DNA of 64,000 nt from Sphingomonas sp. (lineage in GTDB: Bacteria > Pseudomonadota > Alphaproteobacteria > Sphingomonadales > Sphingomonadaceae), in assembly GCA_965219285.1 (NCBI GenBank), contig CBDCNF010000008.1, positions 303,641 to 367,640 on the forward strand, read 5' to 3'. Shown piece after piece: positions 6,070 to 49,438 of this stretch (position 1 is its first letter; every line of letters starts with the position of its first letter). The position numbers were made by a program, and so were the translations under genes. Under the pieces are notes generated by a model, which saw only the letters and a program-made list of their open reading frames with translations, was not told where the DNA came from and did not search any database.

Positions 6070-6282
6070 CTCACTACCCAAGGCCTCCGGCAAAACCGGA
6101 GCGGTTCATTACGAACTGGTCGAAAAAGCCGTGCTTTCAGGTTGCTCCACACTTGTCACCATCTCCGCCGCGACCGACCTGGCGATCGAGCGGGCGCGGT
6201 CCTGCGGGCTGACGCTGATGCCGCTCTCCCGGCCGGACGCGATCCTGCGCGTCGCGACAACGTAAGAACGGATGGGGCAATC

Positions 6283-15254: not shown

Positions 15255-15805
15255 CCATGCCGGCCTCCTCGACCCGGCACGAAGCCTGAATCAGAAAACA
15301 CCGTCCGTGTGAATCCTGAATGATTCAAAAGGCGCGGAAATCGCTCTAATCCGGGCAGTACGGAATGGATTTTGGCCGCTTTGACGGGGCTATCTAACTG
15401 CAATCGGGCCTCGATGGCGGCGAACAGTCGGGCTGACGCGCGCCCGTTTCGCTGCAACCGGTCGATTCCAATGATTATTTCTGCCGGCGCGTCGGGACAG
15501 TCTGGAGTTCGAGCACGCCTTGGGGACCCACGTCGGGCGATCTCAGGGTGTCGCGCAATCGACATCGGGCAAGTTCGCAGAATCACATCACCCGTTTTTC
15601 CCTGCCAAACCCAATTTGGCAGCGAACTTCCCCGTTTTATGGAAAAACAGAGCGAACCGCGCTCAGCTTTATCACGCTATCGCAACCGATTAGGGTGCGA
15701 TTTCCCTGTTGCTTCCGGCAGGGAAGCGGCAGGGAATGCGCAGAACGCGTAGCCTCTAGTCGCAGTTGTGTAATAAGCAAACAGAGGTATATCCTCTGGA
15801 CTGTT

Positions 15806-16775: not shown

Positions 16776-17640
16776 CATACAGCTCGTTCCGGCCGTTTAA
16801 ACCAGAGAGCGTAAAAAAAGAATCCGTATAAAGTCTGTTTATTCCACTACCGCCGTGGAGATTTTGCAATTCAGCATTCACGAAGCCGGCGCCACCGGAA
16901 AACGTTCCAGTCTGGCCCGAGACATGCAACGCGATATCGTCGGTCGTGTCGATAAAATACTCAACGAATGTCTTGTGAAAACCGCCGCCATCCGCGGAAC
17001 TTGTGATGTTCGAGAACACCGCGGTCGCATTTGTATCTCGCCGCGATACGTGTTTTCACCTTCGCCAAATAAAATACGGTATGACGAAAAATGACGAAAC
17101 GATCCGGCTTCGCCGACGATTGATCCGTCCGGCCCCATGGCGAGCGATATGCCATCGATCGCTTTCGTATCGATCTGAATATACGCGTTCCGCGTGTCGC
17201 CGGCATCGAGACTGAGCGTCGTATCAGCGCCCCGTGGCGCCACGGTAACTGCAATGCTCGTGTAATTCGACCGGCCCCCATTCGTGCTCAGGAACTGGAT
17301 CTCTTCGATTCCCTTGAACGTGATATCCGAAGCGGTGGTGGAGCCGCGCTGCCGGGGTTCCTGACGGCGCGAAACTCGTCACCGTAGCCGGTCACGGAAT
17401 CGTACGTGATCGACGCGATAACCGCGGCATTCAGCGCCGAATGATCCACGAAAAGACTGTCATGGCCGCCACGTCCGTCAACGGTATCGGTCCCCGTTTC
17501 CGGATAAAATTAATCGTCGCCACGCGTTCCTACGAGAACGTTGTCTCTTTTCGAGCCAATATAGATTTCTGCCTCGTGAGGGCTGCCGATGACCGGGGCA
17601 TACGGATCTTCCCAATACCAGCGATACCGGCCACCCATCT
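16776..17640 (-). pseudogene. decayed gene for a Ca-binding (RTX-like) repeat protein, with frameshifts, stops and a 3' truncation by IS256
   Basis: Pieces lie in three frames: MGGRYRWYWEDPYAPVIGSPHEAEIYIGSKRDNVLVGTRGDD*, ...TGTDTVDGRGGHDSLFV..., ...ITFKGIEEIQFLSTNGGRSNYTSIAVTVAP... and ...GGAGFVNAELQNLHGGSGINRLY.... GC is lower than the surroundings. Confidence 0.35.
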
Positions 17641-17754
17641 TCGAACTCCTCCCCCCAGCGCGGACGACGTATACCAAGGCACCGCCGATGGCCATTCGAC
17701 GACGCTTATGCCCCGGTGAAAGTTATCCGGATTTTGACCGGGTCCCGTTCGATT

Positions 17755-34726: not shown

Positions 34727-34756
34727 CGGACCGGGATCGAGGCTTAACCCGGTCCG
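34727..34756. terminator. perfect 9-bp hairpin between convergent genes (no U-tract)
   Basis: CGGACCGGG-12 nt-CCCGGTCCG. It lies between the receptor stop (34726) and the radical SAM gene, and covers that gene's stop codon (34744-34746). Confidence 0.3.
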
Positions 34757-35715
34757 GAACAGCGCGCACCGCCCAGCACGCAGAAGCGCGCGCAATGCGG
34801 GTGGTTGAGCGCGATCGGGCGGCTCCCCTCGGCCAGCGTCGCGCCGAGATCGAAGCCGGGATCGTCGGGGATCAGGGTGCAGGCGACCACGCCTGCGTGG
34901 TCCTCGCTGCGGCGATGAACAATCATTCGGCTTGTTGCGCACATCACGTCGCCGGGAGAGACGTCGAGGATGCCCCAGCAAGCGGTGGTGATCTCCGCGA
35001 CGTCGGCGGTCGCGTCCATTTCGGGGAATAGTACCAGGCGCGCCGGATCGCGCGCGTCGATCGCGATGCCGTGTGCGGCGAACAAGGCGGCGTAGCCGGC
35101 GCGGGCTTCGTCATCGGCTTCGGTGGCGAGATGTCGTCCGGCAACCGCGATCGAAAAGCCGTTGGCACAAAGCCATTTCAGCCCGTCCAGCGCGGGCTGC
35201 CAGCTCAGCGCGCCGCGTTCAACCTCATGCACCGCCGGCGTGTGATGATCGAGGCTGACGCGCAGAGTAAGGCGATCGCCGCGCCGTTCGCGTAGCGCGA
35301 GCAAGGCCGTGTCGTGCCGCCGCATCGGCTTCATCGCGTTGGTCAGCACCAGCACGTCGTGCCCGCGGGCGAGCGCCAGATCGAGCATCGCCATGATCTC
35401 GGGATTCATGAACGGCTCACCGCCGGTGAAGCCGATCTCGCGCGTTGCGAAGGCGCCCTCGGCGATCTCGTCGAGGAAGCGCCGGGCTTCTTCCACCGTC
35501 AGGTAGATCAGCGCATCGTTGGTCGGCGAGCTTTCGATATAGCAGGTCGCACAGGCGAGATTGCACAATGTACCGGTGTTGAGCCAGAGCGTTTCCAGCG
35601 CGATCAGCGGAACCTGCGCGCGCGGTTCGCCGACGGCGGTGATTTCGGGATCGGCGAATTTCGCGCGCGGCAGCGGCGGCGCTTCGACGCGGAACGGCGA
35701 CGGACCGGTCGGCAT
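34744..35715 (-). CDS. radical SAM protein with a Cys-rich C-terminal tail (ArsS/TIGR04167-like architecture)
   Basis: The start is trimmed to MPTGPSPF... (14 nt after the upstream stop). It has the CNLACATC CX3CX2C cluster motif, GGEPFMNPE, and the tail ...HPHCARFCVLGGARCSGPG*. Confidence 0.8.
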   Translation of the reverse strand: MPTGPSPFRVEAPPLPRAKFADPEITAVGEPRAQVPLIALETLWLNTGTLCNLACATCYIESSPTNDALIYLTVEEARRFLDEIAEGAFATREIGFTGGEPFMNPEIMAMLDLALARGHDVLVLTNAMKPMRRHDTALLALRERRGDRLTLRVSLDHHTPAVHEVERGALSWQPALDGLKWLCANGFSIAVAGRHLATEADDEARAGYAALFAAHGIAIDARDPARLVLFPEMDATADVAEITTACWGILDVSPGDVMCATSRMIVHRRSEDHAGVVACTLIPDDPGFDLGATLAEGSRPIALNHPHCARFCVLGGARCSGPG

Positions 35716-35729
35716 CGTCCGGGCTCTGG

Positions 35730-37145
35730 TCACGCAAGCCACCGCCGCGTCCTTGCGATCGTCGCCGCCCAGCGTTTGGGCCATGCGCCGAACACCGTTG
35801 GGGATAGCGCCGCGAACGCCGCCGCCTTGGCGATTTCGGATCGTGTCGGATAGGCGACGATCGCCGAACCCAAAGCGAAGGCGGAGGCCTTGCCGGTGAT
35901 GATCTGCGCCCAGGGCAGCACCAATTCGCCCGCGCGCGCGCCGACGATGGTGACGCCGACGACCCTGCCCTTGTGGCGGACGAGCTTGAGGAACCCCCGC
36001 GTGTCGCCTTCGGTGACGGCGCGGTCGTTATGGCTGAAATCCTCTTTCGTCACTTCGACCTTGCCGTATTGCTCGCGCGCCTCGGCTTCGGTCAGCCCGA
36101 TTTGCGCGAGTTCGGGGTCGCTGTAGGTGACGTGCGGCAACGCGCGCCAATCGACCTTACCGGGCCAGCCGAGCGCGACGTCGATGCCGACCAGCGAGCC
36201 TTCATAGCCCGCGACATGCGTGAAGCGCGGGCCGGCGCGGCAATCGCCGATCGCATGGATGCGGCGATTGCTGGTGCGGCGCCGCGCGTCGACGACGATG
36301 CCGTCCTTGCCGACTTTCACACCGGCGGCCTCCAGATCGAGATCGTCGATATTCGCGCGGCGTCCCGTGGCGACAAGCAGATGGCTCCCGGTCACCGATC
36401 GGCCATCGTCGAGCGTTACCGCGATAGTCGCCCCACTCGCCTCGATTTGCGCGACATCGCGCCCGCATTCGATCGTCACGCCCTCCTCGCGCATTTGCGT
36501 CGTAACGAGATCGGCGGCGTCGCGATCGTCGCGCATGAGCATCGCATGCCGCGCGATCACCGTCACTTTGGAGCCGAGCCGGCGAAAGGCCTGCGCCATC
36601 TCCACCGCGATCGCGCCGCCGCCGATGATGACGAGATGATCGGGCAGCACATCCAGCGCGAACAGCGTTTCGTTGGTGAGAAAGGGCGCGTCGATCAGCC
36701 CGTCGATCGGCGGGATCGCCGGTCTGGAGCCGGTCGCGATCACGATGCGCGGCGCCGTCAACGTGCGGTTTCCGGCGCGCACCGTCTTCGCGTCCAGGAA
36801 GTGCGCGCGCGCTCGGATCACGTCGATGCCCATCTTTTCGAACCGGCCTTGCGAATCGTGCGGCGCGATCGCCGCGATCGCGCCATCGACATGCGCGCGG
36901 ACGCCGCGCCAGTCGATTTTCGGTGTCGCAGTGATCCCGAGCCGTGCGCCGTCGCGCGCGCCATGCGCCGCTTTCGCCGCCGCCAGCAGCGCCTTCGAGG
37001 GCACGCAGCCGGTGTTGAGGCATTCGCCCCCCATCTCGCCGGCCTCGATCAACGCGACCTTCAGCCCGAACATCGCCACCCCGCCGGCAGCGGTCAACCC
37101 GGCCGATCCCGCGCCGATCACGATCAGGTCGAATGTATCGGTCAT
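35730..37145 (-). CDS. FAD-dependent pyridine nucleotide-disulfide oxidoreductase (dihydrolipoyl dehydrogenase/mercuric reductase-like)
   Basis: The start is trimmed to MTDTFDLIVIGAGSAGLTAAG. It has a redox disulfide (GGECLNTGCVPSK), a second dinucleotide fold (LVIIGGGAIAVEMAQ) and a C-terminal dimerisation domain. Confidence 0.88.
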   Translation of the reverse strand: MTDTFDLIVIGAGSAGLTAAGGVAMFGLKVALIEAGEMGGECLNTGCVPSKALLAAAKAAHGARDGARLGITATPKIDWRGVRAHVDGAIAAIAPHDSQGRFEKMGIDVIRARAHFLDAKTVRAGNRTLTAPRIVIATGSRPAIPPIDGLIDAPFLTNETLFALDVLPDHLVIIGGGAIAVEMAQAFRRLGSKVTVIARHAMLMRDDRDAADLVTTQMREEGVTIECGRDVAQIEASGATIAVTLDDGRSVTGSHLLVATGRRANIDDLDLEAAGVKVGKDGIVVDARRRTSNRRIHAIGDCRAGPRFTHVAGYEGSLVGIDVALGWPGKVDWRALPHVTYSDPELAQIGLTEAEAREQYGKVEVTKEDFSHNDRAVTEGDTRGFLKLVRHKGRVVGVTIVGARAGELVLPWAQIITGKASAFALGSAIVAYPTRSEIAKAAAFAALSPTVFGAWPKRWAATIARTRRWLA

Positions 37146-37195
37146 GCCGGGGATACGTTTGCACGACCGCAGCGGTTGCACCATGCTCGCATGGC

Positions 37196-38227
37196 ATGAC
37201 GCGTTTACGTATTCTCATCACCGGCGCGGGCGGGCTGATCGGTGGCGAGATTGCGGCACGGCTGGCGGCGCGCGGTCACCGGGTCAGCGCGCTGGTCCAC
37301 CGCAATCCCGAAGTCCGTGGCAATGACGGGCAGACGCCGGCGCTTCATGCGACGTTCCACGGCGATGTGACGCAGCCCGGCTTCGCGATCGATGCCGCAA
37401 CAGCACGCGACCTCGATCTACTGATCCACTGCGCGGCGACGACGCGGTTCGATCTCAAGGACGAGGATTATCGCGCGGTCAATGTCGCCGGAACCGCGCA
37501 CGCGATCGAGCTTGCCCGCAGCTGCGGCATGGCGCTGCTCCATGTCAGCACCGCCTATGTCTGCGGCAGACGCGATGGAGCGATCGCCGAGGACGATCCG
37601 TTGCCGCGAGACGGCTTCGCCAACGGCTATGAGGCGAGCAAGGCGGAGGGCGAGGCGCTCGTCGCGGCGAGCGGCCTGCGATTTGCGATCGCGCGGCCGA
37701 GCGTGGTGGTGGGCGATTCGACCAGCGGCGCGATCCGAACGTTCGACACGATCTATGCCGCGTTCAAACTGATCGCCGAGGGCAGGGTGCGTCATATGGC
37801 GGCGCACGGCGACGCGACGATCGATTTCGTCCCGATTGATCACGTCGCCGCCGGCATCGTCGCGCTGGCCGAGAATATGCGCGTGGCGGATGGCGGGCGC
37901 TACCATCTCGTCTCGGCGCAACCAGCGCCGGTGGCGATGTTCGCTGCTGCGATCGGTGCCTTTCCGCAGTTCAGCGCGCCGACGCTGGTGCCACCCGAAT
38001 CGTTCGACATAGCCGCGCTGCCGCCGCTGGAACGCCGTCTGTATTCGCGCGTCGCCGGGCTCTACAGCAGCTATTTCCAGCGCGATCCACGCTTCGACGA
38101 CAGCGTTTTCCGAAGCGTCACCGGCCTCGTCTGCCCGCCGACCGGCGCGGCGTATCTCAAGCGGCTGATCGGTTATTGTATTGCGGTCGGCTTCCTGTCG
38201 GGCGACGCCCAGGCATCGCGTTCGTGA
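37196..38227 (+). CDS. SDR-fold NAD-binding protein of the thioester-reductase / NAD_binding_4 type
   Basis: The start is trimmed to MTRLRILITGAGGLIGGEIA. The translation has ...LLIHCAATTRF...LLHVSTAYVCG...YEASKAEGE.... Confidence 0.75.
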   Translation: MTRLRILITGAGGLIGGEIAARLAARGHRVSALVHRNPEVRGNDGQTPALHATFHGDVTQPGFAIDAATARDLDLLIHCAATTRFDLKDEDYRAVNVAGTAHAIELARSCGMALLHVSTAYVCGRRDGAIAEDDPLPRDGFANGYEASKAEGEALVAASGLRFAIARPSVVVGDSTSGAIRTFDTIYAAFKLIAEGRVRHMAAHGDATIDFVPIDHVAAGIVALAENMRVADGGRYHLVSAQPAPVAMFAAAIGAFPQFSAPTLVPPESFDIAALPPLERRLYSRVAGLYSSYFQRDPRFDDSVFRSVTGLVCPPTGAAYLKRLIGYCIAVGFLSGDAQASRS

Positions 38228-39018
38228 CCGAACGGCATAACGAGCGACGCGGCGATACCGGTCTCGCCCGGATCGCGGTACGCAGGAACGCCGATCGTGA
38301 TATCGGATTGCGCCACATCGAGCCGGAAGGTGCCGTGGAGATGGTCCCACAAGGCCAGCCCGCTCGACCAGTTCGAATCGGTCTCGTCCTCGACCGCGCT
38401 GTGGTGGATGCCGTGCATCCTGGGAGTCGTGACGAGGTACGCGAGCAGGCGTTCGAGGCGCTCGGGCAAGGCAAGATTGCTGTGGTGGAACAGGATCGAG
38501 ACGAAGAACCAGCCCTGCCAGATTTTCAGCGCGCGCGGGGAAACGCCGATCAGCGCGACCTGTGCTGCGCGGTACTGCGCGGAGATCGCCATGTCGGCGG
38601 CGTGGAAACGCAACGCCGTCGTCGTGTCGAGATCGAGATCGATGTGATGGACGAGATGGAAGCGCCAGAGGAACGGTACCCGGTGGGTCGCGACATGCCA
38701 GAGATAGATGGCGTAATCCATCAAAAGCGCTGCCGCCGCATCGCGCGCCCATGCCGGAATCGGCAAATGCTGGACGAGCCCGCTGCGCCTGCGTTCGGCG
38801 CGTTCGGAGAGCGGGTTGGTGAGCGGTGCCTCGACCAGCGCGACGGTCGCCATGCTCAGCGCACCGAGCACCAGATTGGAGAGGCTCCGTCCCGGCTCCG
38901 CCTGCGTCGCCTTGCGCAACGGTCGCTTCCTTTCGCCGGCGAACAACGCCATCGCGGCGAGGCCGAGCGCGGCAGCGCCGGCGATCGTCACCATCCTGTC
39001 GTGACGGGCCGTGTCCAT
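38173..39018 (-). CDS. fatty acid hydroxylase / sterol desaturase superfamily membrane protein
   Basis: The start is trimmed to MDTARHDRMV.... His boxes are HVATH, HLVHH, FHHSN and MHGIHH. The 3' end overlaps the convergent SDR gene by 55 nt. Confidence 0.8.
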   Translation of the reverse strand: MDTARHDRMVTIAGAAALGLAAMALFAGERKRPLRKATQAEPGRSLSNLVLGALSMATVALVEAPLTNPLSERAERRRSGLVQHLPIPAWARDAAAALLMDYAIYLWHVATHRVPFLWRFHLVHHIDLDLDTTTALRFHAADMAISAQYRAAQVALIGVSPRALKIWQGWFFVSILFHHSNLALPERLERLLAYLVTTPRMHGIHHSAVEDETDSNWSSGLALWDHLHGTFRLDVAQSDITIGVPAYRDPGETGIAASLVMPFGHERDAWASPDRKPTAIQ

Positions 39019-39086
39019 GCGTCGAAAACCCGCGCCGCGCCGAGGAGTTGCGTGCGCGGCGGCGGCGCCTGCGCTATCGCTGGCCG

Positions 39087-39668
39087 ATGAACCCACGCGT
39101 CGTCCTGTTCACGCGCTATCCCGAAGCGGGCAAGGCCAAGACCCGGCTGATCCCGGCATTGGGCGCGGACGGCGCCGCCGCGCTCCACCGCACGCTCACC
39201 GAGCGGACGGTGCGCGCGGTGCAGGAGGGTGGGCTGGCGCTGGAGGTAAGGACCACCGGCGCGCCGGTCGCGGTGTTCGAGGCATGGCTTAGCAAGATTA
39301 CGATCGTCGATCAGGGGGGCGGCGATCTTGGCGAGCGGCTGGCGCGCGCGGCACCGCCTTACCCGACGATCTTCATCGGCTCGGACGCGCCCGATGTGAC
39401 GGCCGATCTGCTGCGAAATGCCGCCGACGCGCTGGCGCATGCCGACGCGGTGATCGGGCCTGCCGAGGACGGCGGATATTGGCTGCTCGGGCTTGCGCGA
39501 GAGGTTCGCGGCGTGTTCGAGCGGATCGATTGGGGAACTGGCGCGGTCCTCACGCAGACTGTGACGCGTCTCGCGGATGCCGGGATCGATCCGGTGCGCG
39601 TGCCCGAACTCGCCGATTGCGACCGGCCCGAGGATCTTGCACGCTGGCCGCATTTGATCTCGGGGTGA
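39087..39668 (+). CDS. DUF2064 (CofC-like) protein, resembling rSAM/selenodomain-associated transferase 1 (TIGR04282)
   Basis: MNPRVVLFTRYPEAGKAKTRLIPALG...IGSDAPD...IGPAEDGGYWLLGL...IDWGT.... This is the DUF2064 pattern as I recall it. Confidence 0.75.
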   Translation: MNPRVVLFTRYPEAGKAKTRLIPALGADGAAALHRTLTERTVRAVQEGGLALEVRTTGAPVAVFEAWLSKITIVDQGGGDLGERLARAAPPYPTIFIGSDAPDVTADLLRNAADALAHADAVIGPAEDGGYWLLGLAREVRGVFERIDWGTGAVLTQTVTRLADAGIDPVRVPELADCDRPEDLARWPHLISG

Positions 39669-40396
39669 GCGAGGCGGTCGCCATCGTCATCCCCACGCTC
39701 GACGAGGCGACGACCTTGCCGCGCCTCGCGCGTCTGCTTGCCGCGCTCGATCCACCGCCCGACGAAATTTTGGTGGTCGATGGCGGCAGCACGGACGGTA
39801 CGGCGAAAATCGCGCGCGACCTCGGCTTGGCGGTTATCGAACATCACGAACAGGGTCGGTCGCGCCAGATCAATCGCGGCGTCGATGCGGTGTCCGGCCC
39901 GATCGTCTGCGTGCTCCACGCCGATACCGAGCCGCCCGACGACATGATCGCGGTGATCCGCCGGACGATGGCCGATCCGAAGATCGCGCTCGCCGGGTTT
40001 ACGCCGTTGCTAAGCGGACCCGACAAGGTGCGCTGGGTCACCTCATTCCATAACTGGATCAAGACCTGGTACGCGCCGCTGCTGCTCCGTCCGCATCTGT
40101 TCGTGAAGGGCGTCCGCCTGCTGTTCGGCGATCACGCGATGTTCTTTCGCCGCGCCGATTTCCTCGCCGTGGGCGGCTGCGATCCAGGCATGAGCGTGAT
40201 GGAGGAGGCCGATCTTTGCGTGAAGATGGCGCGTTTCGGCCGCGTCCGGCTGGTCAATCGCGTGATCCTCACCTCCGACCGGCGCGTCGCGGCCTGGGGC
40301 GAGTGGAAGGCGAACTGGATTTACTTCACCGTCGGCATCCGCTGGGCGATGGGCCTGCACAAGCGGCTCGGCGAGCGCTATCCGCATATTCGCTGA
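39665..40396 (+). CDS. family-2 glycosyltransferase, resembling rSAM/selenodomain-associated transferase 2 (TIGR04283, MftF-like)
   Basis: GTG 39665 start (GTGA overlap with the upstream stop). The translation reads VAIVIPTLDEA...VVDGGSTDGT...GRSRQIN.G...LHADT...FGDHAMFFRR..F...GG. Confidence 0.75.
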   Translation: MSEAVAIVIPTLDEATTLPRLARLLAALDPPPDEILVVDGGSTDGTAKIARDLGLAVIEHHEQGRSRQINRGVDAVSGPIVCVLHADTEPPDDMIAVIRRTMADPKIALAGFTPLLSGPDKVRWVTSFHNWIKTWYAPLLLRPHLFVKGVRLLFGDHAMFFRRADFLAVGGCDPGMSVMEEADLCVKMARFGRVRLVNRVILTSDRRVAAWGEWKANWIYFTVGIRWAMGLHKRLGERYPHIR

Positions 40397-40397
40397 G

Positions 40398-40712
40398 CTA
40401 TTTTCGGGATTTCCCGCGCACGCCCCGGATGGTCGAGAAGGCGCCGTAACCGATCAACAGCGCGAGCGCCGCCCAGACCCAGACCGGAATATCGTGGCCG
40501 ACGATCGCCAAATAGAGATAGGCCGACACGAAGAAGAAGCCCGCACACAGAACGGGCAGCACGATCGACTGGCCGGCGCGCAACCGTCGGACCAGCCAGG
40601 CGATCGACAGCAGGAAAAACGGGATCGCGCCGACGTAGATCGCGCCGAACACGATCGGATCGACGCCGTACCGCGCGCCCAGCCCGAAGAACCAGTCGTG
40701 AAGCGCGTTCAT
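40398..40712 (-). CDS. small integral membrane protein (104 aa, about 3 TM helices)
   Basis: MNALHDWFFGLGARYGVDPIVFGAIYVGAIPFFLLSIAWLV...VLPVLCAGFFFVSAYLYLAIV...VWVWAALALLIGYGAF.... ATGA overlap with the upstream radical SAM stop. Its stop lies 1 nt from the convergent GT2 stop. Confidence 0.65.
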   Translation of the reverse strand: MNALHDWFFGLGARYGVDPIVFGAIYVGAIPFFLLSIAWLVRRLRAGQSIVLPVLCAGFFFVSAYLYLAIVGHDIPVWVWAALALLIGYGAFSTIRGVRGKSRK

Positions 40713-41755
40713 GCCGCCGCAAGCCGTGCCGCGCGCCGGTCGCGCAGAACGTCGCCTAGCGTCTCGCGGAAATAGGCGTCGCAGCCGAGACACGGATTGG
40801 CGACCGTCTGCCCCTTGGGATCGACGCGAACCGATGTTTCGCGGAACGCCTCCCGGCTCAGCCCCTCCTGTTCGCCCATCCCCTCGGGATCGCCGCGATT
40901 GAGCGCCAGGATCGCTGGCTCGGTACGCAGATCGTCGAGAATGTCGGTCAGCCGCTCCTCCGCAAGACTCCCGAGCGGCGCCTGCGTCTTGAGGCAGCAG
41001 GGGTAGAGCGATCCGTCGGGCTCGATCGCGACCTCCGATCCGGACTGGCCGTAATCGAGAAAGCTCTTCGCGCCCGACCAGCGCGCGCAGAAATTCGTCT
41101 CGTAATCCGCCTGCACCAGCCCGTTGGTCCACGCGCGCCCGCGCGGCCAGAGTTCGCCGATCCACAGATCGGGTTGCGCGCCGAAGAACAGGAAGCTCGG
41201 GCCGGTCTCGGCGCGCGCGGGTTTGGGTTCCTTTAGCCGTTGGTCCTTGGCGATCCCCAGACTCACTTCGCGCACGCCCAATCCGGCCATCATCGCGCGA
41301 ATGCGATCCATCAGGCGGAACTTGCCGTCGCCGGCGTGGCCGACATGATAATCGTCGATGCTAGCGACCGCGATGGTCGAGACGCCGCGCGCGATCATGT
41401 CGCGGACATGATTCTCGGTCATGATGTCGCCGGTGGTCTGCACGCCGATGCGCGGGCCATCGTCGCCCCAGCGTTCGCGGATGCCCGCCAGCACCGGCCA
41501 GAACAACTCCTCGCGCACGCCGTCGATCAGCAATTCGCCACCCGCTAGGATCAATGTGGTCGGCTGCTCGCGTCCCTTGGTGTCGATCCAGCGCATGCGA
41601 TCGGGCAGATTGGCGAGGATGCGCGGCCAGGCGGCCTGCCCTTCGCCCACCACGCCTTTCAGCGCATCGCGGACATAGGGCCGAAAGCGATCGTCGTAAC
41701 AATGCGGGCATTTGCGGTGGCACGCCCAGCTCAGCACCCAATAGATCGATTGCAT
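40709..41755 (-). CDS. radical SAM protein with additional C-terminal Cys motifs (family not recognised)
   Basis: The start is trimmed to MQSIYWVLSWACHRKCPHCYD (CX3CX2C at residues 12-19). Later motifs are LYPCCLK and NPCLGCD. ATGA overlap with the Rieske gene stop. Confidence 0.75.
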   Translation of the reverse strand: MQSIYWVLSWACHRKCPHCYDDRFRPYVRDALKGVVGEGQAAWPRILANLPDRMRWIDTKGREQPTTLILAGGELLIDGVREELFWPVLAGIRERWGDDGPRIGVQTTGDIMTENHVRDMIARGVSTIAVASIDDYHVGHAGDGKFRLMDRIRAMMAGLGVREVSLGIAKDQRLKEPKPARAETGPSFLFFGAQPDLWIGELWPRGRAWTNGLVQADYETNFCARWSGAKSFLDYGQSGSEVAIEPDGSLYPCCLKTQAPLGSLAEERLTDILDDLRTEPAILALNRGDPEGMGEQEGLSREAFRETSVRVDPKGQTVANPCLGCDAYFRETLGDVLRDRRAARLAAA

Positions 41756-42546
41756 CAGCCGCCCCATCGCGCGACGACGCGCCCATCGGTAACGGTGATA
41801 TTGGGCGGCGTGGCGAGCCTCAACGCGGGGTGCGCGGGGCATTTCCCATCGGCCACGTTGAAGACGTAGCCGTGCCACGGGCATCGTATCGCGCGATCCA
41901 CGACCGGTGCTTCATCGAGCGGGCCGAGCCAGTGTGGACAAACGGTCGAATGCGCGATCAGTGCGCCATCGACATCGATCAGCCGAAACGGCGCGCCGCC
42001 GAACTCGAACGTCAGCGGCAAAGCGGCGCGCACCGCCCGCTCCTCGCCGAGATCGAGCGGCGGCGCGGTGAGATCCGGCGTGGTCCGTCGCGCCAGCACG
42101 CGCTCGCGCGCCTGCATCATCGCTTCGTCCTCGTCCCACAGCTTGGCGTAAGCCACCGTATAGGCCTCTCCGAGCGCGGCAAGCCGCTCCGGTCGCTCCT
42201 CGGGGCAATGGAATTCGACCGTGACATCGACGACGTCGGTGTCGATCGGATCAAGCGCGACGCGGATTTCGGTGCCCTTTCCGCTGCCCCCGACCGTGGT
42301 CGATGTGTAGCGACCGGCGGCACGATCGGCGCGCATCTCGATCCGCTGCGGCGTCGCGCCTTTGGGAGTCAGATCTACCTGCCAGCCCCACGCGCCGCGA
42401 TCGATCAGCGTGCAATCGGCGAAGCTGCCGTCATGGAGGTGCGCGAGATGTTCCCAGTCGAACACATTCTCCCAGATCCGCGCTGGCGATGCGTTCACAC
42501 GCCGCCGGTAGGTCCCGGCCAGATGCAGCGCCGGCGCCACGCTCAT
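41755..42546 (-). CDS. two-domain protein: N-terminal SRPBCC-like domain plus C-terminal Rieske [2Fe-2S] domain
   Basis: Rieske ligands are CPHWLGPL...CPWHGYVF. The N-terminal ~150 aa (..RRVNASPARIWENVFDWEHLAHLHD..) looks like a START/SRPBCC lipid-binding fold. The start at ATG 42546 overlaps the DUF2147 stop (ATGA). Confidence 0.75.
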   Translation of the reverse strand: MSVAPALHLAGTYRRRVNASPARIWENVFDWEHLAHLHDGSFADCTLIDRGAWGWQVDLTPKGATPQRIEMRADRAAGRYTSTTVGGSGKGTEIRVALDPIDTDVVDVTVEFHCPEERPERLAALGEAYTVAYAKLWDEDEAMMQARERVLARRTTPDLTAPPLDLGEERAVRAALPLTFEFGGAPFRLIDVDGALIAHSTVCPHWLGPLDEAPVVDRAIRCPWHGYVFNVADGKCPAHPALRLATPPNITVTDGRVVARWGG

Positions 42547-42947
42547 TTTGCCGGTTTCCAATGCTGCGTCTTACAGAAGAACAGGATGCACCCCTGCGCC
42601 TTCAGCCCGCCGGTCTCGCGCGAGACGATCGATTTGTACCATTTGCCGGCTTCGGGATCGTAGATATGGCCGCGCCAATCGTCTCCCTGATCGGTAAAGC
42701 CGCGCAGCACTTCAAGTCCCTGAATAGGCCGATGGCGTAATTTCGGATCGGGGTTGCGTTCGTCGATCGGCGGACCCTTTGGGGTCGGCGCGAGGATCTT
42801 GGTAATATGGCCGCAGACGACCTTGCCGCATTTCGCAATCGTGACGAGCGCCTTGCCGTCGTCGGTGATCCAGCGCCCGGTGATCGGCTCGGCGGCTTGC
42901 GCTGCTCCGGCGAACGCGAGGAGGGAAAGGAAAATCATCGATCGCAT
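42543..42947 (-). CDS. secreted DUF2147-domain protein
   Basis: The start is trimmed to MRSMIFLSLLAFAGAAQA|AEPITGRW.T.DGKA.V.I..CG...CG.I....... The translation then continues ...W.G.IYDP..GK.Y, the DUF2147 pattern. Confidence 0.75.
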   Translation of the reverse strand: MRSMIFLSLLAFAGAAQAAEPITGRWITDDGKALVTIAKCGKVVCGHITKILAPTPKGPPIDERNPDPKLRHRPIQGLEVLRGFTDQGDDWRGHIYDPEAGKWYKSIVSRETGGLKAQGCILFFCKTQHWKPAK

Positions 42948-42993
42948 GGTGCGGCTGTTCCAATCGTGAGAAAGAGGGTGCTGGAGGACGAGA

Positions 42994-43863
42994 ATGAACG
43001 CTGAGTGGACCATCGGGATCATCGGGGGCTCTGGTCTATACGCCATAGACGCGCTGGAGGATGCAGAATGGCGTGACGTCGCGACTCCTTGGGGCACACC
43101 GTCGGATCAGATCCTGCACGGTCGGATCGGCGACGTCGCCTTACGATTCCTGCCGCGGCACGGCCGCGGCCACCCGATTCCGCCGCACGCGGTGAATGCG
43201 CGCGCCAATATCGATGCGCTCAAACGTTGCGGCTGTACCGACCTGCTGGCGATTTCCTCGATCGGCTCGTTGCGCGAGGAACTGGCGCCGGGCCGCTTCG
43301 TCGTCGTCGATCAGTTCATCGATCGCACCGTCGGGCGCCCGCCGAGCTTCTTCGGCACTGGCATGGTCGCGCATGTCTCGATGGCCGAACCGGTCTGTCC
43401 GCGGCTTTCCGCTCTGGCCGCCGCTTCGGTCACGGCGGCGGGGGGCCGCGTTGCCGAAGGCGCGACCTATCTGGCGATGGAGGGGCCGCAATTCTCGACG
43501 CGCGCGGAAAGCCTGCTCTACCGGCAATGGGGTGCCGACGTGATCGGCATGACCGCGATGCCCGAGGCGCGCCTCGCGCGCGAAGCGGAGCTGCCCTATG
43601 CGCTGGTCGGCATGGTCACCGATTACGATTGCTGGCGAGACGAAGCCGCGTTCGTCGAAGTTTCCCAGGTCATCGAACAAATGACCGCGAACGGCGCGAT
43701 CGCGCGCGCGATGGTCGAGCGGTTCGTCGCGGCGTTGCCGACGGAGCGCGCGGCGTCCCCGATCGACACGACGCTGGACCACGCGTTGATCACCGCGCCC
43801 GATGCGCGAGATCCGGCGATGCTCGCACGGCTGGACGCCGTTGCCGGACGGGTGCTGGGTTAG
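42994..43863 (+). CDS. mtnP: S-methyl-5'-thioadenosine phosphorylase
   Basis: 289 aa reading IGIIGGSGLY...FLPRHGRGH...NI.ALK..G......SS.GSL.....PG..V..DQFIDRT...GMT..PEA.LARE. Confidence 0.88.
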   Translation: MNAEWTIGIIGGSGLYAIDALEDAEWRDVATPWGTPSDQILHGRIGDVALRFLPRHGRGHPIPPHAVNARANIDALKRCGCTDLLAISSIGSLREELAPGRFVVVDQFIDRTVGRPPSFFGTGMVAHVSMAEPVCPRLSALAAASVTAAGGRVAEGATYLAMEGPQFSTRAESLLYRQWGADVIGMTAMPEARLAREAELPYALVGMVTDYDCWRDEAAFVEVSQVIEQMTANGAIARAMVERFVAALPTERAASPIDTTLDHALITAPDARDPAMLARLDAVAGRVLG

Positions 43864-45125
43864 ATCTCTCGCCCCCGCAGCCAATAGACCGGCACCGCCG
43901 CGAGCATCAGTACGATGCTCAGCCCGCTCGCTTGCCAGCCCGCACCCCAGAAAGCGAACAGCGTGAACGGCACGCCGATCAGCGCCGCCGCGACCGCGAT
44001 CCGACGCATCAGCGCCGACACGCAGATCGCGAGATACAGCCACAGCGACGCGCACGTGGTGAGCAGCGCGGCGAATTCGAACACGCCCGCAAGGCTCTTG
44101 CTGGCGTTGAACAGCACCAGCAGGCTCGCCGCGCTCGACGAGATCGCAAGGACGCGCACCGGCACGTCGCGCGCGGAAACCTTGGCGAACCAGCGCGGCA
44201 GCAACCCGGCGCGCGCCATGCCGAGCGGCACCTCGCCCTGGATCAGCACCCAGCCGTTGAGCGCGCCGATCGCCGCGATCGCCGCGAACGCCGCCACCGC
44301 GAGGCTCGCGCCGCGCCCGACGAAGCGATCGACGAACAACTGGAACGGCGCACCCGAGGCGGCGATGTCGGCAGCGGGGAGCAGCAGGACGATCGCCGAG
44401 CAGACGACGATGTAAAGCACGCCGACCAGCAAAGTCCCCGCCATCGTCGCGCGCATCACGTTGCGCGCGGGATCGCGCACGCGCTCTGCGGCGACGCCTG
44501 CCGCCTCGAAGCCGAGCAGCGGGAACAGCGTCAGCGTGACGGCGGCGGCGAGCCCGGCGAAGGCGGTGCTCGCGGGGGGCAGCGGCGGCGCGCTCGCCTG
44601 CCCGGTGCCGCCGAGCCACATCGCGATCGCGACGACCGCGATCAACGGCAGCAGCTTGAGGATTGTCGTGACCACTTGGAAACGCCCGGCGAGCCTCGCG
44701 CCGCCGAGGTTGAGCAAGGTCAGCAGCCAGATCAGCGCGACTGACACCAGCGCCCCGGTGAGCGGGGTCGCGTCGAGCGCGGGCACGAACACGCTGAGAT
44801 AGCTCGTCGCGGCGATCGAGATCGCGGCATTGGCCGACCACACCGACACCCAATAGCTCGCGCCGACCATCACGCCGGGGAGCGCGCCGAGCACCGCCCC
44901 GGTGATCGCGACCGCGCCGGTCTCTTCGGGCATCGCCCGCGCCAGCCTTGCGATGCACAAAGCGATGGCGAGCGCTCCGGCAATGCTGACGACCCAGGCG
45001 ATCGTGCCGGTCCAGCCGAACGGTGCGAGGGCGATCGGCATCAGGAAAATGCCCGATCCGATCATCCCCCCGACGATCAGCGCGGTCGCGGTCCAGAAGC
45101 CGAATGGCCGTTGGTCTGTGGTCAT
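43860..45125 (-). CDS. APC-superfamily amino acid permease
   Basis: The start is trimmed to MTTDQRPFGFWTATALIVGGMIGSGIFLMP. It has about 12 TM helices. Its stop overlaps the mtnP stop (TTAG, 43860-43863). Confidence 0.85.
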   Translation of the reverse strand: MTTDQRPFGFWTATALIVGGMIGSGIFLMPIALAPFGWTGTIAWVVSIAGALAIALCIARLARAMPEETGAVAITGAVLGALPGVMVGASYWVSVWSANAAISIAATSYLSVFVPALDATPLTGALVSVALIWLLTLLNLGGARLAGRFQVVTTILKLLPLIAVVAIAMWLGGTGQASAPPLPPASTAFAGLAAAVTLTLFPLLGFEAAGVAAERVRDPARNVMRATMAGTLLVGVLYIVVCSAIVLLLPAADIAASGAPFQLFVDRFVGRGASLAVAAFAAIAAIGALNGWVLIQGEVPLGMARAGLLPRWFAKVSARDVPVRVLAISSSAASLLVLFNASKSLAGVFEFAALLTTCASLWLYLAICVSALMRRIAVAAALIGVPFTLFAFWGAGWQASGLSIVLMLAAVPVYWLRGREI

Positions 45126-45181
45126 GTACCCCCTGCACCATAAGCGAACCACGAAACCGGGGAGCCGTCTAGGGCGCGACC

Positions 45182-46777
45182 GTGCGGCTTGACGCTTTGC
45201 GCGTACGCGTGGTTTCTCGCGAGATGGCCAGCCGCTATCCTCCACAACTCGTCGATGCCGCGCTGGCGCTTCACGACAACCGGCTCGGTGAGGCGGAGCC
45301 GGTGTTGCGCGCGTACCTGAAGCGCGATCCGTTCGATGCGCGCGCGATCCGGATGCTTGCCGAACTCGCCGGGCGGATCGGGCGGTACAAGGATGCCGAG
45401 ACTTTGTTGCGCCGCGCGATCGAGATCGCGCCGGGCTTCACCGCGGCACGCGCCAATATGGCGATTGTGCTCCACCGCCAAGGGCGGTCGGCGGACGCGC
45501 TTGCCGAACTCGACGCGGTGTTGGCCGACGAACCCGACAATCCCGGCCACAGCAATCTGAAGGCGGCTGCGCTCGGCAGGATCGGCGGGTTCGAAGAGGC
45601 GATCACGCTGTATGAGCAGGTGCTGGCAAACGCGCCGCACCAGCCCAAGGTGTGGATGAGCTATGGCCATATGCTCAAGACGATCGGGCGGCAGGCCGAT
45701 GGTGTGGCCGCCTATCGCCGTGCGATCGCGCTGCGCCCGGCACTGGGCGAGGCGTGGTGGAGCCTCGCCAATCTGAAGACGGTGAAGTTCGACGATGCCG
45801 ATATCGCGGCGATGCGGGCGGCGCTCGCCGGTCCCGCGATTTCCGACGAGGATCGTTTCCACCTCGATTTCGCGGTCGGCAAAGCGCTCTGGGACGTGGG
45901 CGACGATGCCGCGAGCTTCGCGCATTATGCCGATGGAAACGCGCTTCGCCGGACGGCGATCGTCTACGACGCCGACGCGACTGAGGCCTTCGTCGATCGC
46001 TCGATCATGCTGTTCGACGCGGACTTCTTCGCTGCGCGCGTCGGGCAAGGCTGCCCCGGTTCCGATCCGATCTTCGTGCTCGGCATGCCGCGCGCGGGAT
46101 CGACGCTGGTCGAACAGATTCTCGCCAGCCACAGCCAGATCGAGGGCACCACCGAACTGCCCGACATTCCCGCGCTCGTCCGCGGAATCGAAGACTATCC
46201 GGCAGGACTGGCGACGCTGCCGCCCGAGCGGCTCCGCGAGATGGGCGAAGAATATTTGCGCCGCGCCAGCGTTCAGCGTCGCACCGACAGACCCTATTTC
46301 ATCGACAAGCTGCCCAACAACTGGGCGCATGTCGCGTTGATCCGCTTGATCCTGCCCAATGCGACGATCGTCGACGCGCGGCGCGATGCGATGGATTGCT
46401 GCGTGTCGAACTTCCGCCAGCATTATGCGCGCGGGCAAGGGTTCAGCTACGCGCTCGCGGACATGGGGCGCTATTATCGCGATTACGTCCGGTTCATGGA
46501 ACATATCGATACGGTCCAACCGGGCGCCATCCACCGCGTCGTTCACGAGGATTTGGTCGCGGATACCGAAACGCAAGTTTGGAATTTGCTCGCGGCGTGC
46601 GGTGTGGCGTTCGAGCCCGCCTGTCTCGCGTTTCACGAAACCGAACGCGCGGTGCGGACCGCCAGTTCTGAGCAGGTCCGCCAGCCGATTTCGGCGGGCG
46701 CGATCGGCGGCTGGCGACGGTTCGATCCGTGGCTCGCGCTACTCAAGGACGCGCTTGGCCCGGAATTGTTACGATAG
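45182..46777 (+). CDS. TPR-repeat protein fused to a sulfotransferase domain
   Basis: N-terminal TPR-like repeats are followed by GMPRAGSTLVEQIL (5'-PSB loop) and ...RRD..D...S.F.... The start is uncertain: GTG 45182 or ATG 45224. Confidence 0.8.
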   Translation: MRLDALRVRVVSREMASRYPPQLVDAALALHDNRLGEAEPVLRAYLKRDPFDARAIRMLAELAGRIGRYKDAETLLRRAIEIAPGFTAARANMAIVLHRQGRSADALAELDAVLADEPDNPGHSNLKAAALGRIGGFEEAITLYEQVLANAPHQPKVWMSYGHMLKTIGRQADGVAAYRRAIALRPALGEAWWSLANLKTVKFDDADIAAMRAALAGPAISDEDRFHLDFAVGKALWDVGDDAASFAHYADGNALRRTAIVYDADATEAFVDRSIMLFDADFFAARVGQGCPGSDPIFVLGMPRAGSTLVEQILASHSQIEGTTELPDIPALVRGIEDYPAGLATLPPERLREMGEEYLRRASVQRRTDRPYFIDKLPNNWAHVALIRLILPNATIVDARRDAMDCCVSNFRQHYARGQGFSYALADMGRYYRDYVRFMEHIDTVQPGAIHRVVHEDLVADTETQVWNLLAACGVAFEPACLAFHETERAVRTASSEQVRQPISAGAIGGWRRFDPWLALLKDALGPELLR

Positions 46778-46888
46778 CGTTGCAGAATCGTCACGCTCGG
46801 CAATGAAGTGTCGCGACACGCGGCGCGCGATTGACCTTTGTTGCGTTGCACCACAGTCTCGCGAACGGATTGATCGGGGGGATTTGCG

Positions 46889-49438
46889 ATGCATGGTGTT
46901 CATTCGCGGCTGGCGCTCGCGACCCTGCTGGGTACGACGATGCTCGCAGCGTCGCCCGTGTTCGCGCAGACCGAACCGAAGACGACCGATACCGCCGCCA
47001 GCGAGGTGCAGGACGACATCATCGTCACCGCGCAGAAGCGCGACGAGAATATCCAGGACGTGCCGATCAGCATTCAGGCGATCGGGACCAAGAAACTCGA
47101 TCAGCTCAACATCTCGAATTTCAACGAATATACCCAGCTTCTCCCCTCGGTCGCCTTCCAGACGCTGCAACCCGGCGCCACCACGGTCTATATGCGCGGC
47201 GTCGCATCGGGCGGCGACGGCAACCATTCTGGCTCGCTGCCGTCGGTCGGGACCTATCTCGACGAGCAGCCGGTGACGACGATCGGCGGGACGCTCGACG
47301 TCCATATCTACGATATCGCGCGGATCGAGAGCCTCGCCGGGCCGCAGGGTACGCTCTACGGTGCGTCGTCGGAGGCGGGGACGATCCGGATCATCACCAA
47401 CAAGCCCGACACCTCGGGCTTCTACGGCCGCGTCGACGGCGAGGTTAACACCGTCCATTCGGGCGGCGTCGGCGGCAAGATCGAAGGCTTTATCAACGCG
47501 CCGATCAGCCAGGACGTCGCGCTGCGCGTCGTCGGCTTCTATCAGAAGGACGCGGGCTTCATCGACAACGTGCCGGGCACGCGCACCTTCTGCGGCACGC
47601 CGACCTTCGACGGCGACGGCAACATCAACGGTTGCAACCCCGACGGGATTTCGGTCGACAACAGCCAGTTCGTCAAAAAGGACTATAACACCAACGAGAC
47701 CTATGGCGGCCGCGCCGCGCTGAAGATCGATCTCGACGACAGCTGGACCGTCACGCCGGCGGTGATCTACCAGGAGCAGCGCTCGAAGGGTAGCTTCGGC
47801 TACGATCCGCAGGTCGGCGACCTGCAGCTCCAGCATTTCTACCCCGAATATCGCCGCGAGCGGTTCGTCCAGGCGGCGCTGACGATCGAGGGCAAGATCG
47901 GTGACTGGGACGTGACCTACGCGGGTGCCTATCTCGACCGCACGACCGCGGCGTCGACCGATTATACCGATTATTCCGAAGCGTACGATTCGCTTTATGC
48001 GTCGGTCGGTGGCCTCGCCAATTATTTCTATTATCAGGACAATGCCGGCGCAACGATCGATCCGCGGCAGAACGTCCTGTCGACCGACCATTTCAAGAAG
48101 ACCAGCCAGGAAGTCCGCGTCGCCAGCCCGCAGAGCGAGCGCTTCCGCGTCGTTGCAGGTGCCTTCTACCAGCGCCAGTCGAACCTGATCCATCAGGATT
48201 ACGCCATCCCCAATCTTGGGTCTGACGTCTCGGTCAATGGCCTGCCGGGGACATTGTGGCTGACGCAGCAACACCGCGTCGACAAGGATTATGCGGTGTT
48301 CGGCGAGGCGAGCTTCGACATCCTGCCGAAACTGACCTTCACCGCGGGTGTGCGGGGATACATTTACGACAATTCGCTGATCGGGTTCTTCGGTTTCGGG
48401 CGCAATCCCAACGCCGATCCAGATGACGGGCGGCCCTTTACCGCTTTTCCGCGCAACGCCGCCGGCAGTTCGGGGACCGGCGTCGCGGGCTGCTACCTCG
48501 TCAACGGACAGACTCTCGGTGCGGTCGTGAACGATCCCGACGGCGGTCCCGTCCCGGCGCTCCTCCCGCCCGCGGTCAAGGGCGGGCCGTGCGTCAACCT
48601 CGGCGATTACGCCAATGGTGCGGTTGCCCCGCGCGACGCGCAGGGACAGGGCGCCACCTATCGTTTCAACCTGACGTGGAAACCGATCGACGACATCCTG
48701 TTCTACGGCACCTTCTCGCGCGGCTTCCGCCCCGGCGGCATCAACCGGCGCGGCGATGTCGCCGCCTACGCTGCCGATTTCCTGACCAATTACGAGATCG
48801 GCGCGAAGACGACGCTGCTGGATGGGAAGCTGCGGCTCAACGGCGCGGTCTACCAGCAGAATTGGGACGCGTTCCAATTCTCGTTCCTCGGCCAGAATAG
48901 CTTCACGATCATCCAGAACGGGCCCGACGCGCGCATTCGCGGGGTGGAGGCGGATGCCAATCTCGGTCTTGGTCCGCTGATTCTGACTGCGGCGGGCGCA
49001 TACACCGATGCGGTGACGCGCGACGATTTGTGTACGACGGTCGTCTGCAGCGGCGATCCCGCCGATGTCCTCGCGCCCAGCGGAACCCGCCTCCCGATCA
49101 CGCCGCGGTTCAAGGTGAGCGGCACCGCGCGCTACACCGTGCCGATCGGCAATGCGAACGCATACATCCAAGGGCTGGTCGCGCATCAGAGTTCCGCGTC
49201 TTCGGACGTGCGCGTCGCCAAGGCGGCCGCGCTCGGACAGTTGAAGCAATATACCACCGCCAACCTCGCGATCGGCGCCGACCTAGGCAATTACAAAGTC
49301 GAGGTGTTTGCGCAGAATCTGTGGGACGAACGCGCGCAACTGACCCGGTATCAGGAATGCGGTTCGTGCGACCAGCGGCCGTATATCGTGCCGTCGACGC
49401 CGCGCACGATCGGGATCAGGGCGGGGGTGAAGTTCTAG
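46889..49438 (+). CDS. TonB-dependent outer-membrane receptor
   Basis: 849 aa with a signal peptide, DIIVTAQKRDENIQDVPISI, IARIESLAGPQGTLYGASSEAGTIRIITNKP and the C-terminus ...IGIRAGVKF. Confidence 0.93.
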   Translation: MHGVHSRLALATLLGTTMLAASPVFAQTEPKTTDTAASEVQDDIIVTAQKRDENIQDVPISIQAIGTKKLDQLNISNFNEYTQLLPSVAFQTLQPGATTVYMRGVASGGDGNHSGSLPSVGTYLDEQPVTTIGGTLDVHIYDIARIESLAGPQGTLYGASSEAGTIRIITNKPDTSGFYGRVDGEVNTVHSGGVGGKIEGFINAPISQDVALRVVGFYQKDAGFIDNVPGTRTFCGTPTFDGDGNINGCNPDGISVDNSQFVKKDYNTNETYGGRAALKIDLDDSWTVTPAVIYQEQRSKGSFGYDPQVGDLQLQHFYPEYRRERFVQAALTIEGKIGDWDVTYAGAYLDRTTAASTDYTDYSEAYDSLYASVGGLANYFYYQDNAGATIDPRQNVLSTDHFKKTSQEVRVASPQSERFRVVAGAFYQRQSNLIHQDYAIPNLGSDVSVNGLPGTLWLTQQHRVDKDYAVFGEASFDILPKLTFTAGVRGYIYDNSLIGFFGFGRNPNADPDDGRPFTAFPRNAAGSSGTGVAGCYLVNGQTLGAVVNDPDGGPVPALLPPAVKGGPCVNLGDYANGAVAPRDAQGQGATYRFNLTWKPIDDILFYGTFSRGFRPGGINRRGDVAAYAADFLTNYEIGAKTTLLDGKLRLNGAVYQQNWDAFQFSFLGQNSFTIIQNGPDARIRGVEADANLGLGPLILTAAGAYTDAVTRDDLCTTVVCSGDPADVLAPSGTRLPITPRFKVSGTARYTVPIGNANAYIQGLVAHQSSASSDVRVAKAAALGQLKQYTTANLAIGADLGNYKVEVFAQNLWDERAQLTRYQECGSCDQRPYIVPSTPRTIGIRAGVKF

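Follow-up and report, generated by a model that had tools for sequence, protein, structure and literature searches.

Four closely packed genes fill positions 40398-42947 of a 64,000-nucleotide stretch of Sphingomonas DNA with a G+C content of about 65 % (the whole stretch is called here the window), and they raise the question of which unit they belong to and what their products do together. All four lie on the minus strand; their open reading frames (ORFs) and the domain matches of their products show them to be real genes, and they are tightly coupled, as reported in a preliminary description of the locus. The four genes are:

42947..42543, minus strand: DUF2147 gene, 134 amino acids
42546..41755, minus strand: Rieske protein gene, 263 amino acids
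41755..40709, minus strand: radical S-adenosylmethionine (SAM) gene, named rSAM-A, 348 amino acids
40712..40398, minus strand: small membrane protein gene, 104 amino acids

We find that the conserved unit is not the four-gene operon. It is in the first place a cluster of about 9.1 kb to which the four genes belong, and in the second place a Rieske-(rSAM-A)-membrane module within that cluster. We propose that the region is the oxidative-tailoring arm of this 11-gene cluster, a reading whose chances we judge to be about evenly balanced. Each of its two most striking enzymes, the Rieske oxygenase and rSAM-A, represents a new variant of a familiar kind, and the recurrent cluster around them is uncharacterised.

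The comparison rests on two scans and on further loci that were looked up by exact protein. The rSAM-A family was scanned with one genome kept per species, which gave 151 species, mostly Hyphomonadaceae, Caulobacterales, Micropepsaceae and Sphingomonadales; the window genes were compared with the rSAM-A loci by tblastn and neighbouring genes were clustered over 83 loci. The Rieske family was followed through 80 metagenomic loci. Individual loci are designated by L numbers.

The Rieske protein ends in a C-terminal Rieske [2Fe-2S] domain (PF00355, E 4.6e-12). Its N-terminal SRPBCC-fold domain of about 150 amino acids gives weak Pfam matches to Polyketide_cyc2 and to the start of VanA_C, the catalytic domain of vanillate demethylase oxygenase, the latter with a score of 22.1 that falls just short of the cut-off of 23.5. 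Among 32 homologues the Rieske domain is detected in all and VanA_C in 26 (best E 5.6e-6), with the match covering the first 29 positions of the model. The best PDB sequence matches are oxygenases of the phthalate family: residues 200-247 align with residues 52-98 of SxtT, within its Rieske domain, and residues 7-47 with residues 138-178, at the start of its catalytic domain. Because these segments align in swapped order, the domain order itself is swapped, and the standard arrangement of alpha subunits (Rieske domain N-terminal, catalytic domain C-terminal) is reversed.

The SRPBCC domain was initially described as a START-like ligand-binding domain, a reading that is not supported. In it lies, without exception in the family, the motif by which the catalytic domains of Rieske oxygenases bind mononuclear iron: E26, N27, D30, H33, H38 and D140 are invariant over the 32 sequences, and the N-x2-D-x2-H-x4-H spacing corresponds to the bridging Asp and two His ligands in the DdmC and NDO structures. 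H205 and W224 of the Rieske domain are likewise invariant, and at least 90 % of the sequences share the ligands C203, C222 and H225. Even the 33 %-identical protein of L059 retains the iron motif (ENAYDWEHLPYVH). We therefore prefer a complete swapped-order oxygenase over a ligand-binding protein, and on these sequence motifs we read it as a compact Rieske non-haem-iron oxygenase of reversed domain order with a candidate iron site formed by NxxDxxHxxxxH plus an Asp. It shares with VanA, DdmC, SxtT and NdmA the CxH...CxxH motif, the iron motif with a distal Asp and the SRPBCC fold, but differs from them in having the catalytic domain first, in the length of this domain (about 150 amino acids compared to the 193 positions of the VanA_C model) and in that a partner reductase was not seen. 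Proteins of this architecture are currently annotated merely as "Rieske (2Fe-2S) protein".

The radical SAM motif of rSAM-A, CHRKCPHC, is a CX3CX2C motif (C12, C16, C19) that shows no exception among 40 sequences and persists in 9 of 10 distant relatives. G72, G73 and E74 of the GGE motif are invariant as well. The YPCC and CLGC motifs noted at the outset are conserved together with a further cysteine, giving the auxiliary set C223, C253 (C254), C322 and C325, and the three elements hold together down to 28 % identity. The pattern C...C...CxxC fits one twitch-type auxiliary cluster; since there are four auxiliary cysteines and not seven, it points to a twitch rather than a full SPASM domain. 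The protein passes the Pfam SPASM model (PF13186, 26 bits compared to a cut-off of 21.5) but fails the Radical_SAM model (PF04055, 14.3 bits compared to a gathering cut-off of 29.5). With this score below the cut-off, the family is largely invisible to PF04055 and has been overlooked by standard censuses.

In the NCBIfam profile search no model came near its cut-off, which places rSAM-A outside the well-characterised housekeeping subfamilies; the preliminary description had not recognised its subfamily either. For more distant relatives the matches stay within generic SPASM/twitch families, among them AhbD, NirJ, viperin and MoaA, and a profile search of the PDB gave no match at E<=1. The family forms a sequence island: 1.84 billion representatives yielded just 353 clusters at 50 % identity with E<=1e-3, most of them fragments. 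The AlphaFold2 model has a predicted local distance difference test (pLDDT) of 85 and a predicted template-modelling score (pTM) of 0.87; that of the Rieske protein is confident, with a pLDDT of 92. Foldseek places BtrN first (E 3.9e-6), followed by SuiB, SkfB and viperin-like proteins, the top matches all being radical SAM enzymes. Taken together, rSAM-A is a radical SAM enzyme of the twitch type with a BtrN-like predicted fold, and its family is unclassified.

BtrN, the 2-deoxy-scyllo-inosamine dehydrogenase (DOIA dehydrogenase), is the archetypal twitch-domain radical SAM enzyme and acts on a small sugar-like molecule. rSAM-A resembles it in the CX3CX2C motif at the extreme N-terminus, the abridged barrel and the single auxiliary cluster held by C...C...CxxC. 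It differs in being about 100 residues longer, in its low similarity (13 % identity, template-modelling scores 0.42/0.56) and in its setting, where aminoglycoside genes are not nearby. Given 13 % identity in the structural alignment and the lack of a PDB sequence match at E<=1, rSAM-A stands outside the BtrN family and works like BtrN at most.

Foldseek matches two to four are the peptide maturases SuiB and SkfB, and together with the weak SPASM match they would suit a maturase of ribosomally synthesised and post-translationally modified peptides (RiPPs) that uses a small neighbouring ORF as its substrate. We consider this highly improbable, in agreement with the initial assessment. The radical SAM motif begins at residue 12 and so leaves no room for an N-terminal peptide-recognition (RRE) domain, the auxiliary site has four cysteines and not the seven of the SPASM set, and no conserved ORF of at least 50 amino acids lies beside rSAM-A in the 83 loci. 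The 104-amino-acid neighbour is itself a conserved membrane protein, present also in loci that have no rSAM-A, and rSAM-A showed no features of a peptide maturase.

The four genes were thought to work with 34744-40396 as one system. Synteny supports this and extends the system further, to the phosphorylase gene at 42994-43863, so that it spans about 9.1 kb and 11 genes (34744-43863). The seven remaining genes are:

34744..35733, minus strand: rSAM2, a second radical SAM protein, ArsS/Rv1681-like (NF049973, the Rv1681 family, 101 bits compared to a cut-off of 380; TIGR04167, 52.7 compared to 300)
35730..37145, minus strand: flavin adenine dinucleotide (FAD)-dependent pyridine-nucleotide-disulfide oxidoreductase, MerA/Lpd-like (PF07992, Pyr_redox_2, and PF02852, Pyr_redox_dim)
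37196..38227, plus strand: short-chain dehydrogenase/reductase (SDR), thioester-reductase-like (NAD_binding_4, PF07993, E 2.3e-38)
38173..39018, minus strand: membrane fatty-acid hydroxylase, a di-iron enzyme of the sterol-desaturase family (PF04116, E 5.8e-21; weak OlsE-like match)
39087..39668, plus strand: DUF2064/TIGR04282-family transferase (TIGR04282, 175.5 bits, above the cut-off of 134; PF09837)
39665..40396, plus strand: TIGR04283-like family 2 glycosyltransferase, GT2 (TIGR04283, 164.4 bits, narrowly below the cut-off of 182; Pfam Glycos_transf_2)
42994..43863, plus strand: S-methyl-5'-thioadenosine phosphorylase, MTAP (TIGR01694, 281 bits compared to a cut-off of 274.85)

The TIGR04167 (ArsS) match of rSAM2 covers the N-terminal half only, and the matches of the FAD oxidoreductase to NF004991 and MerA are below the cut-offs. 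The GTG start of the GT2 gene at 39665 overlaps the stop of the TIGR04282 gene. MTAP adjoins the cluster in L009, L013, L015, L021, L089-L092, L095, L098 and L175.

The nearest genome found is an uncultured Aquisediminimonas metagenome-assembled genome (MAG; L009) with an 85 %-identical rSAM-A. Among the loci of the rSAM-A scan it alone has the full window neighbourhood; its DUF2147 gene is broken, the membrane protein is missing, and the Rieske and rSAM-A genes are adjacent. L091 and L092 repeat the cluster gene for gene without rSAM-A, with DUF2147, Rieske and membrane-protein genes joined by 4-nucleotide overlaps. L089 lacks both rSAM-A and the membrane protein and has gained a VKOR gene, L090 is a rearranged variant, and L175 is like the window without DUF2147. 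The Rieske, rSAM-A and membrane-protein genes also stand together in L176 (8290-11375), L177 (1084-4169) and L178 (903-3280), where the hydroxylase, placed after the module in L176 and L177, is the only other cluster gene. These breaks in synteny speak against the proposed obligate co-expression of all four genes. The full set is not constant, yet the trio recurs (window, L175, L176-L178), and Rieske and rSAM-A genes adjoin in L009 and, with a 33 %-identical Rieske protein of the same reversed domain order and the gene order flipped so that rSAM-A comes first, in L059 and L066, where cluster genes are not nearby. DUF2147 and rSAM-A are each optional.

Other arrangements link rSAM-A to the cluster without the trio. 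In L013, L015 and L021, DUF547 (minus strand) and rSAM-A are followed by rSAM2, then by MTAP, the FAD reductase and VTT/DedA on the minus strand, then by GT2, DUF2064, DUF1499 and the hydroxylase; rSAM-A and rSAM2 overlap by 4 nucleotides in L021. The order in L017, L022 and L029 (Sphingomonas aquatica) is DUF2064, then DUF547, DUF1499 and the hydroxylase, then GT2, GT87 and rSAM-A. On a Chondrinema litorale plasmid (L179, NZ_CP111049.1, 219949-228810), 7 kb separate a DUF2064 gene from a relative of rSAM-A with 30 % identity. Overall, about 9 of about 87 rSAM-A loci carry DUF2064 within 10 kb, in at least three distinct arrangements, compared to a chance expectation that we roughly estimate at below 1 %. 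rSAM-A is thus tied to the cluster through at least four independent architectures and to the Rieske protein through three, and its linkage to the cluster spans Sphingomonadaceae, Caulobacteraceae, Hyphomonadaceae and a Bacteroidota plasmid.

Several of these loci have features of their own. VTT/DedA, DUF547 and DUF1499 are recurrent extra genes without a counterpart in the window (L021 14373-15110, 9081-9869 and 16509-17291; L029), carried by cluster variants of Hyphomonadaceae, Caulobacteraceae and Sphingomonas. The surroundings of L176-L178 hold TonB-receptor, levansucrase and ROK genes or KatG and Cus genes, and an IS66 transposase directly follows the module in L178. The Chondrinema operon runs from DUF2064 through a TonB-dependent receptor and ABC transporter genes to the radical SAM gene, followed by a 127-amino-acid CxxC protein. 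In L092 the cluster (flanks at 5707-6759 and 15654-17843) lies between relaxase/ParB/SSB genes and VirB4/VirB3/TrbC genes, flanks that may mark it as the cargo of a conjugative element. L091 comes from the same sample, and there the cluster adjoins cytochrome oxidase genes.

What such a cluster makes can be approached through its enzyme classes. Its core would be rSAM2 (ArsS/Rv1681-related), MTAP, the TIGR04282 nucleotidyl-transferase-like protein and GT2. In the scheme that we propose, rSAM2 would put a 5'-deoxyadenosyl unit onto an acceptor, MTAP would take off the adenine, and the two transferases would hand the resulting pentose to a glycoconjugate or lipid. The Rieske-rSAM-A-membrane module would then modify the membrane-associated product. 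O2 would be consumed by the Rieske enzyme and by the di-iron hydroxylase. The part of rSAM-A would be hydrogen-atom abstraction at a sugar or cyclitol-like carbon, leading, as BtrN or AprD4 do, to oxidation, epimerisation or dehydration, and the membrane protein would serve as an anchor for the enzymes or offer them the substrate.

Two known systems suggest this logic of adenosyl addition, adenine removal and glycosyl transfer. The first is the ArsS-type "radical SAM/selenodomain" neighbourhood (TIGR04167, TIGR04282, TIGR04283), which NCBIfam names arsenosugar biosynthesis. The window has a TIGR04282 member, a TIGR04283-like GT2 and a radical SAM protein in common with it. It departs from it in the low ArsS score of rSAM2, in the lack of an arsenic methyltransferase among the cluster genes scanned and in its additional FAD reductase, SDR, hydroxylase, Rieske protein, rSAM-A and MTAP. 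The second is the hopanoid side-chain pathway, in which the radical SAM enzyme HpnH performs adenosyl transfer and is accompanied by the phosphorylase HpnG, the SDR HpnA, the GT2 enzymes HpnB and HpnI and the radical SAM enzyme HpnJ. The window has the same enzyme classes, namely two radical SAM enzymes, a purine nucleoside phosphorylase (PNP)-family phosphorylase, a GT2 and an SDR, but NCBIfam scores stay far below the respective cut-offs (HpnH 30.8 compared to 225, HpnG 21 to 187, HpnA 58 to 368, HpnB 21 to 379). Since neither the ArsS score nor any Hpn score comes near its cut-off, the likeness is one of analogy and not of membership. The only functional label that the cluster now bears, "arsenosugar glycosyltransferase", was carried over from another radical SAM system.

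The cluster is compact and common to Sphingomonadaceae, Caulobacterales and Hyphomonadaceae. Sphingomonas aquatica LMG 28596, Hyphomonas johnsonii MHS-2 and Sphingomonas oligophenolica are cultured carriers suited to genetics and lipidomics. A more specific idea, which we hold to be doubtful, is that the previously undescribed reversed-order minimal Rieske oxygenase, the unrecognised twitch radical SAM family and their membrane partner constitute a mobile module that tailors the product of an ArsS-like pathway of adenosylation, phosphorolysis and glycosyl transfer. If so, Alphaproteobacteria would have an envelope lipid or glycoconjugate of a new class, one that bears a 5-deoxypentose.

A number of observations weigh against the tailoring-arm proposal. 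On the chemical side, the adenosylation scheme is an analogy only, rSAM2 is below the ArsS and Rv1681 cut-offs and GT2 narrowly below that of TIGR04283, and MTAP may simply clear 5'-deoxyadenosine. A literature search on the cluster, the rSAM-A family, reversed-order or permuted Rieske oxygenases, ArsS/arsenosugar, the TIGR numbers and the DUF names found nothing relevant. On the side of the Rieske protein, the iron-site homology is short (about 29 VanA_C positions) with the assignment coming from motif spacing, no reductase partner for the Rieske cluster is evident, and Foldseek, which aligns sequentially, gives the N-terminal domain of the model no matches other than Bet v 1/START/cyclase folds, which are metal-free. 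As to distribution, about 70 of the 83 rSAM-A loci have none of the window neighbours within 10 kb. rSAM-A is found in none of the 80 Rieske-family loci, about 60 of which are without cluster genes. With most loci of each lacking cluster neighbours, the Rieske protein or rSAM-A can work alone.

The remaining contexts of both families are diverse. About 18 of the 80 Rieske-family loci carry cluster genes, and the others sit in several unrelated contexts, including an MFS-like transporter and a thiamine diphosphate (ThDP)-like enzyme (both judged by eye from N-terminal sequence). Neighbour clustering over the 83 loci revealed no universally conserved partner of rSAM-A. The largest recurrent neighbourhood, about 20 loci that are mostly Hyphomonas and Hyphomonadaceae MAGs with a few binned as Acidobacteria, has a shared gene directly downstream, TetR-family in L003, and is read as shared ancestry.

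One explanation for the scattered distribution is that rSAM-A is an unrelated passenger gene, which a chance insertion in a single sphingomonad lineage placed between the Rieske gene and the membrane-protein gene. Its absence from the otherwise identical operon of L091 and L092, as well as the many rSAM-A loci without any cluster gene, would be expected in that case. A chance insertion in one lineage does not account for linkage to cluster genes in at least four architectures from several families and a Bacteroidota plasmid, and a repeat search found no flanking repeats, insertion scars or mobile-element scars at the rSAM-A gene. We consider a passenger quite improbable.

Pairs of O2-dependent and O2-independent enzymes for one step are well known, as in AcsF/BchE and HemF/HemN. 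The Rieske oxygenase and rSAM-A could form such a pair for one tailoring step, with genomes keeping one or both according to oxygen regime. Otherwise similar cores indeed occur with the Rieske gene only (L089-L092, L095, L102, L104, L105, L109) or with rSAM-A only (L013, L015, L021). This apparent exclusivity is inflated, as the loci were gathered with each protein as the query. The two genes are also immediate neighbours in three independent arrangements (window/L009/L175; L176-L178; L059/L066), and the O2-dependent di-iron hydroxylase is present in both types of cluster. Alternative enzymes for a single step are thus unlikely in our view, and modification of the cluster product by a tailoring arm remains our preferred reading.

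The Foldseek result for the N-terminal domain is also compatible with a humbler role, in which the Rieske domain is a mere electron carrier and the SRPBCC domain a mere lipid or ligand carrier, both serving rSAM-A or the membrane di-iron hydroxylase. Along the same line, the Rieske domain is equally close to dioxygenase ferredoxins and to oxygenase Rieske domains, and the Rieske gene lies directly upstream of the hydroxylase gene in L102, L104 and L105 and near it in L176 and L177. The invariant E-N-x2-D-x2-H-x4-H with D140 has the exact spacing of a Rieske-oxygenase iron site, as in DdmC and NDO, and speaks against a carrier. Moreover, both presumed clients are missing near most members of the Rieske family, and the reduction potential of a Rieske centre is too high for it to act as reductant of a radical SAM cluster. 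A carrier therefore seems improbable, and we retain the oxygenase.

The two outer genes of the region encode the DUF2147 protein, whose presence in the operon varies, and the small membrane protein. The DUF2147 protein matches PF09917 (E 4.8e-30, 104.9 bits compared to a gathering score of 27) and carries a Sec signal peptide (MRSMIFLSLLAFAGAAQA), in line with the secreted protein initially described; a PDB search with it gave no match. Its gene is found in L089, L091, L092, L097 and L098 and missing in L175-L178. The 104-amino-acid protein has, as described before, three hydrophobic segments that hydropathy reads as transmembrane helices, and it has 1307 homologues at 70-89 % identity. Its gene comes after the Rieske gene in L091 and L092 and after rSAM-A in L175-L178. 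In a Pontixanthobacter MAG (L093, 8512-9336) a 70 %-identical homologue sits between a glutathione peroxidase gene and dnaE with cluster genes not nearby, so the family is not exclusive to the cluster.

The gene packing itself is less unusual than it first appeared. Of three ATGA overlaps originally reported, those at the DUF2147/Rieske (42546-42543) and rSAM-A/membrane-protein (40712-40709) junctions stand; the middle junction is TGATG, where the Rieske stop TGA (41757-41755) and the rSAM-A ATG (41755-41753) overlap by 1 nucleotide at 41755. A scan of the window found about 19 ATGA/GTGA/TGATG junctions between long reading frames rich in G+C at third codon positions, and overlapping stop/start junctions are ordinary in this Sphingomonas genome. 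An in-frame upstream ATG at 41767 was tried as the rSAM-A start and rejected because aligned homologues begin M-Q/E-S/A-I/L-Y-W, at the MQS position. The operon does end, as stated earlier, 1 nucleotide from the convergent GT2 gene (stops at 40398 and 40396), and L091, L092 and L175 have the same gap.

A scan of 40000-43400 for promoter-like and terminator-like sites gave nothing above the level of shuffled sequence, and no Rfam family matched in 33000-47000. The start codons of MTAP and DUF2147 diverge across only 46 nucleotides (42948-42993), so their promoters must overlap each other or lie within coding sequence; the spacing and the ribosome-binding-site-like blocks of this region are kept in L089, L091, L092 and L009. 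The 3' ends of the SDR (plus strand) and hydroxylase (minus strand) genes overlap by 55 nucleotides (38173-38227), with an identical overlap in L091, L092 and L175, and the VKOR gene of L089 lies between these two genes. At the other end of the cluster, a TonB-dependent receptor gene (31844-34726) converges on rSAM2 with an 18-nucleotide gap, which may be a coincidence in a sphingomonad and can be compared with the receptor gene in the Chondrinema operon.

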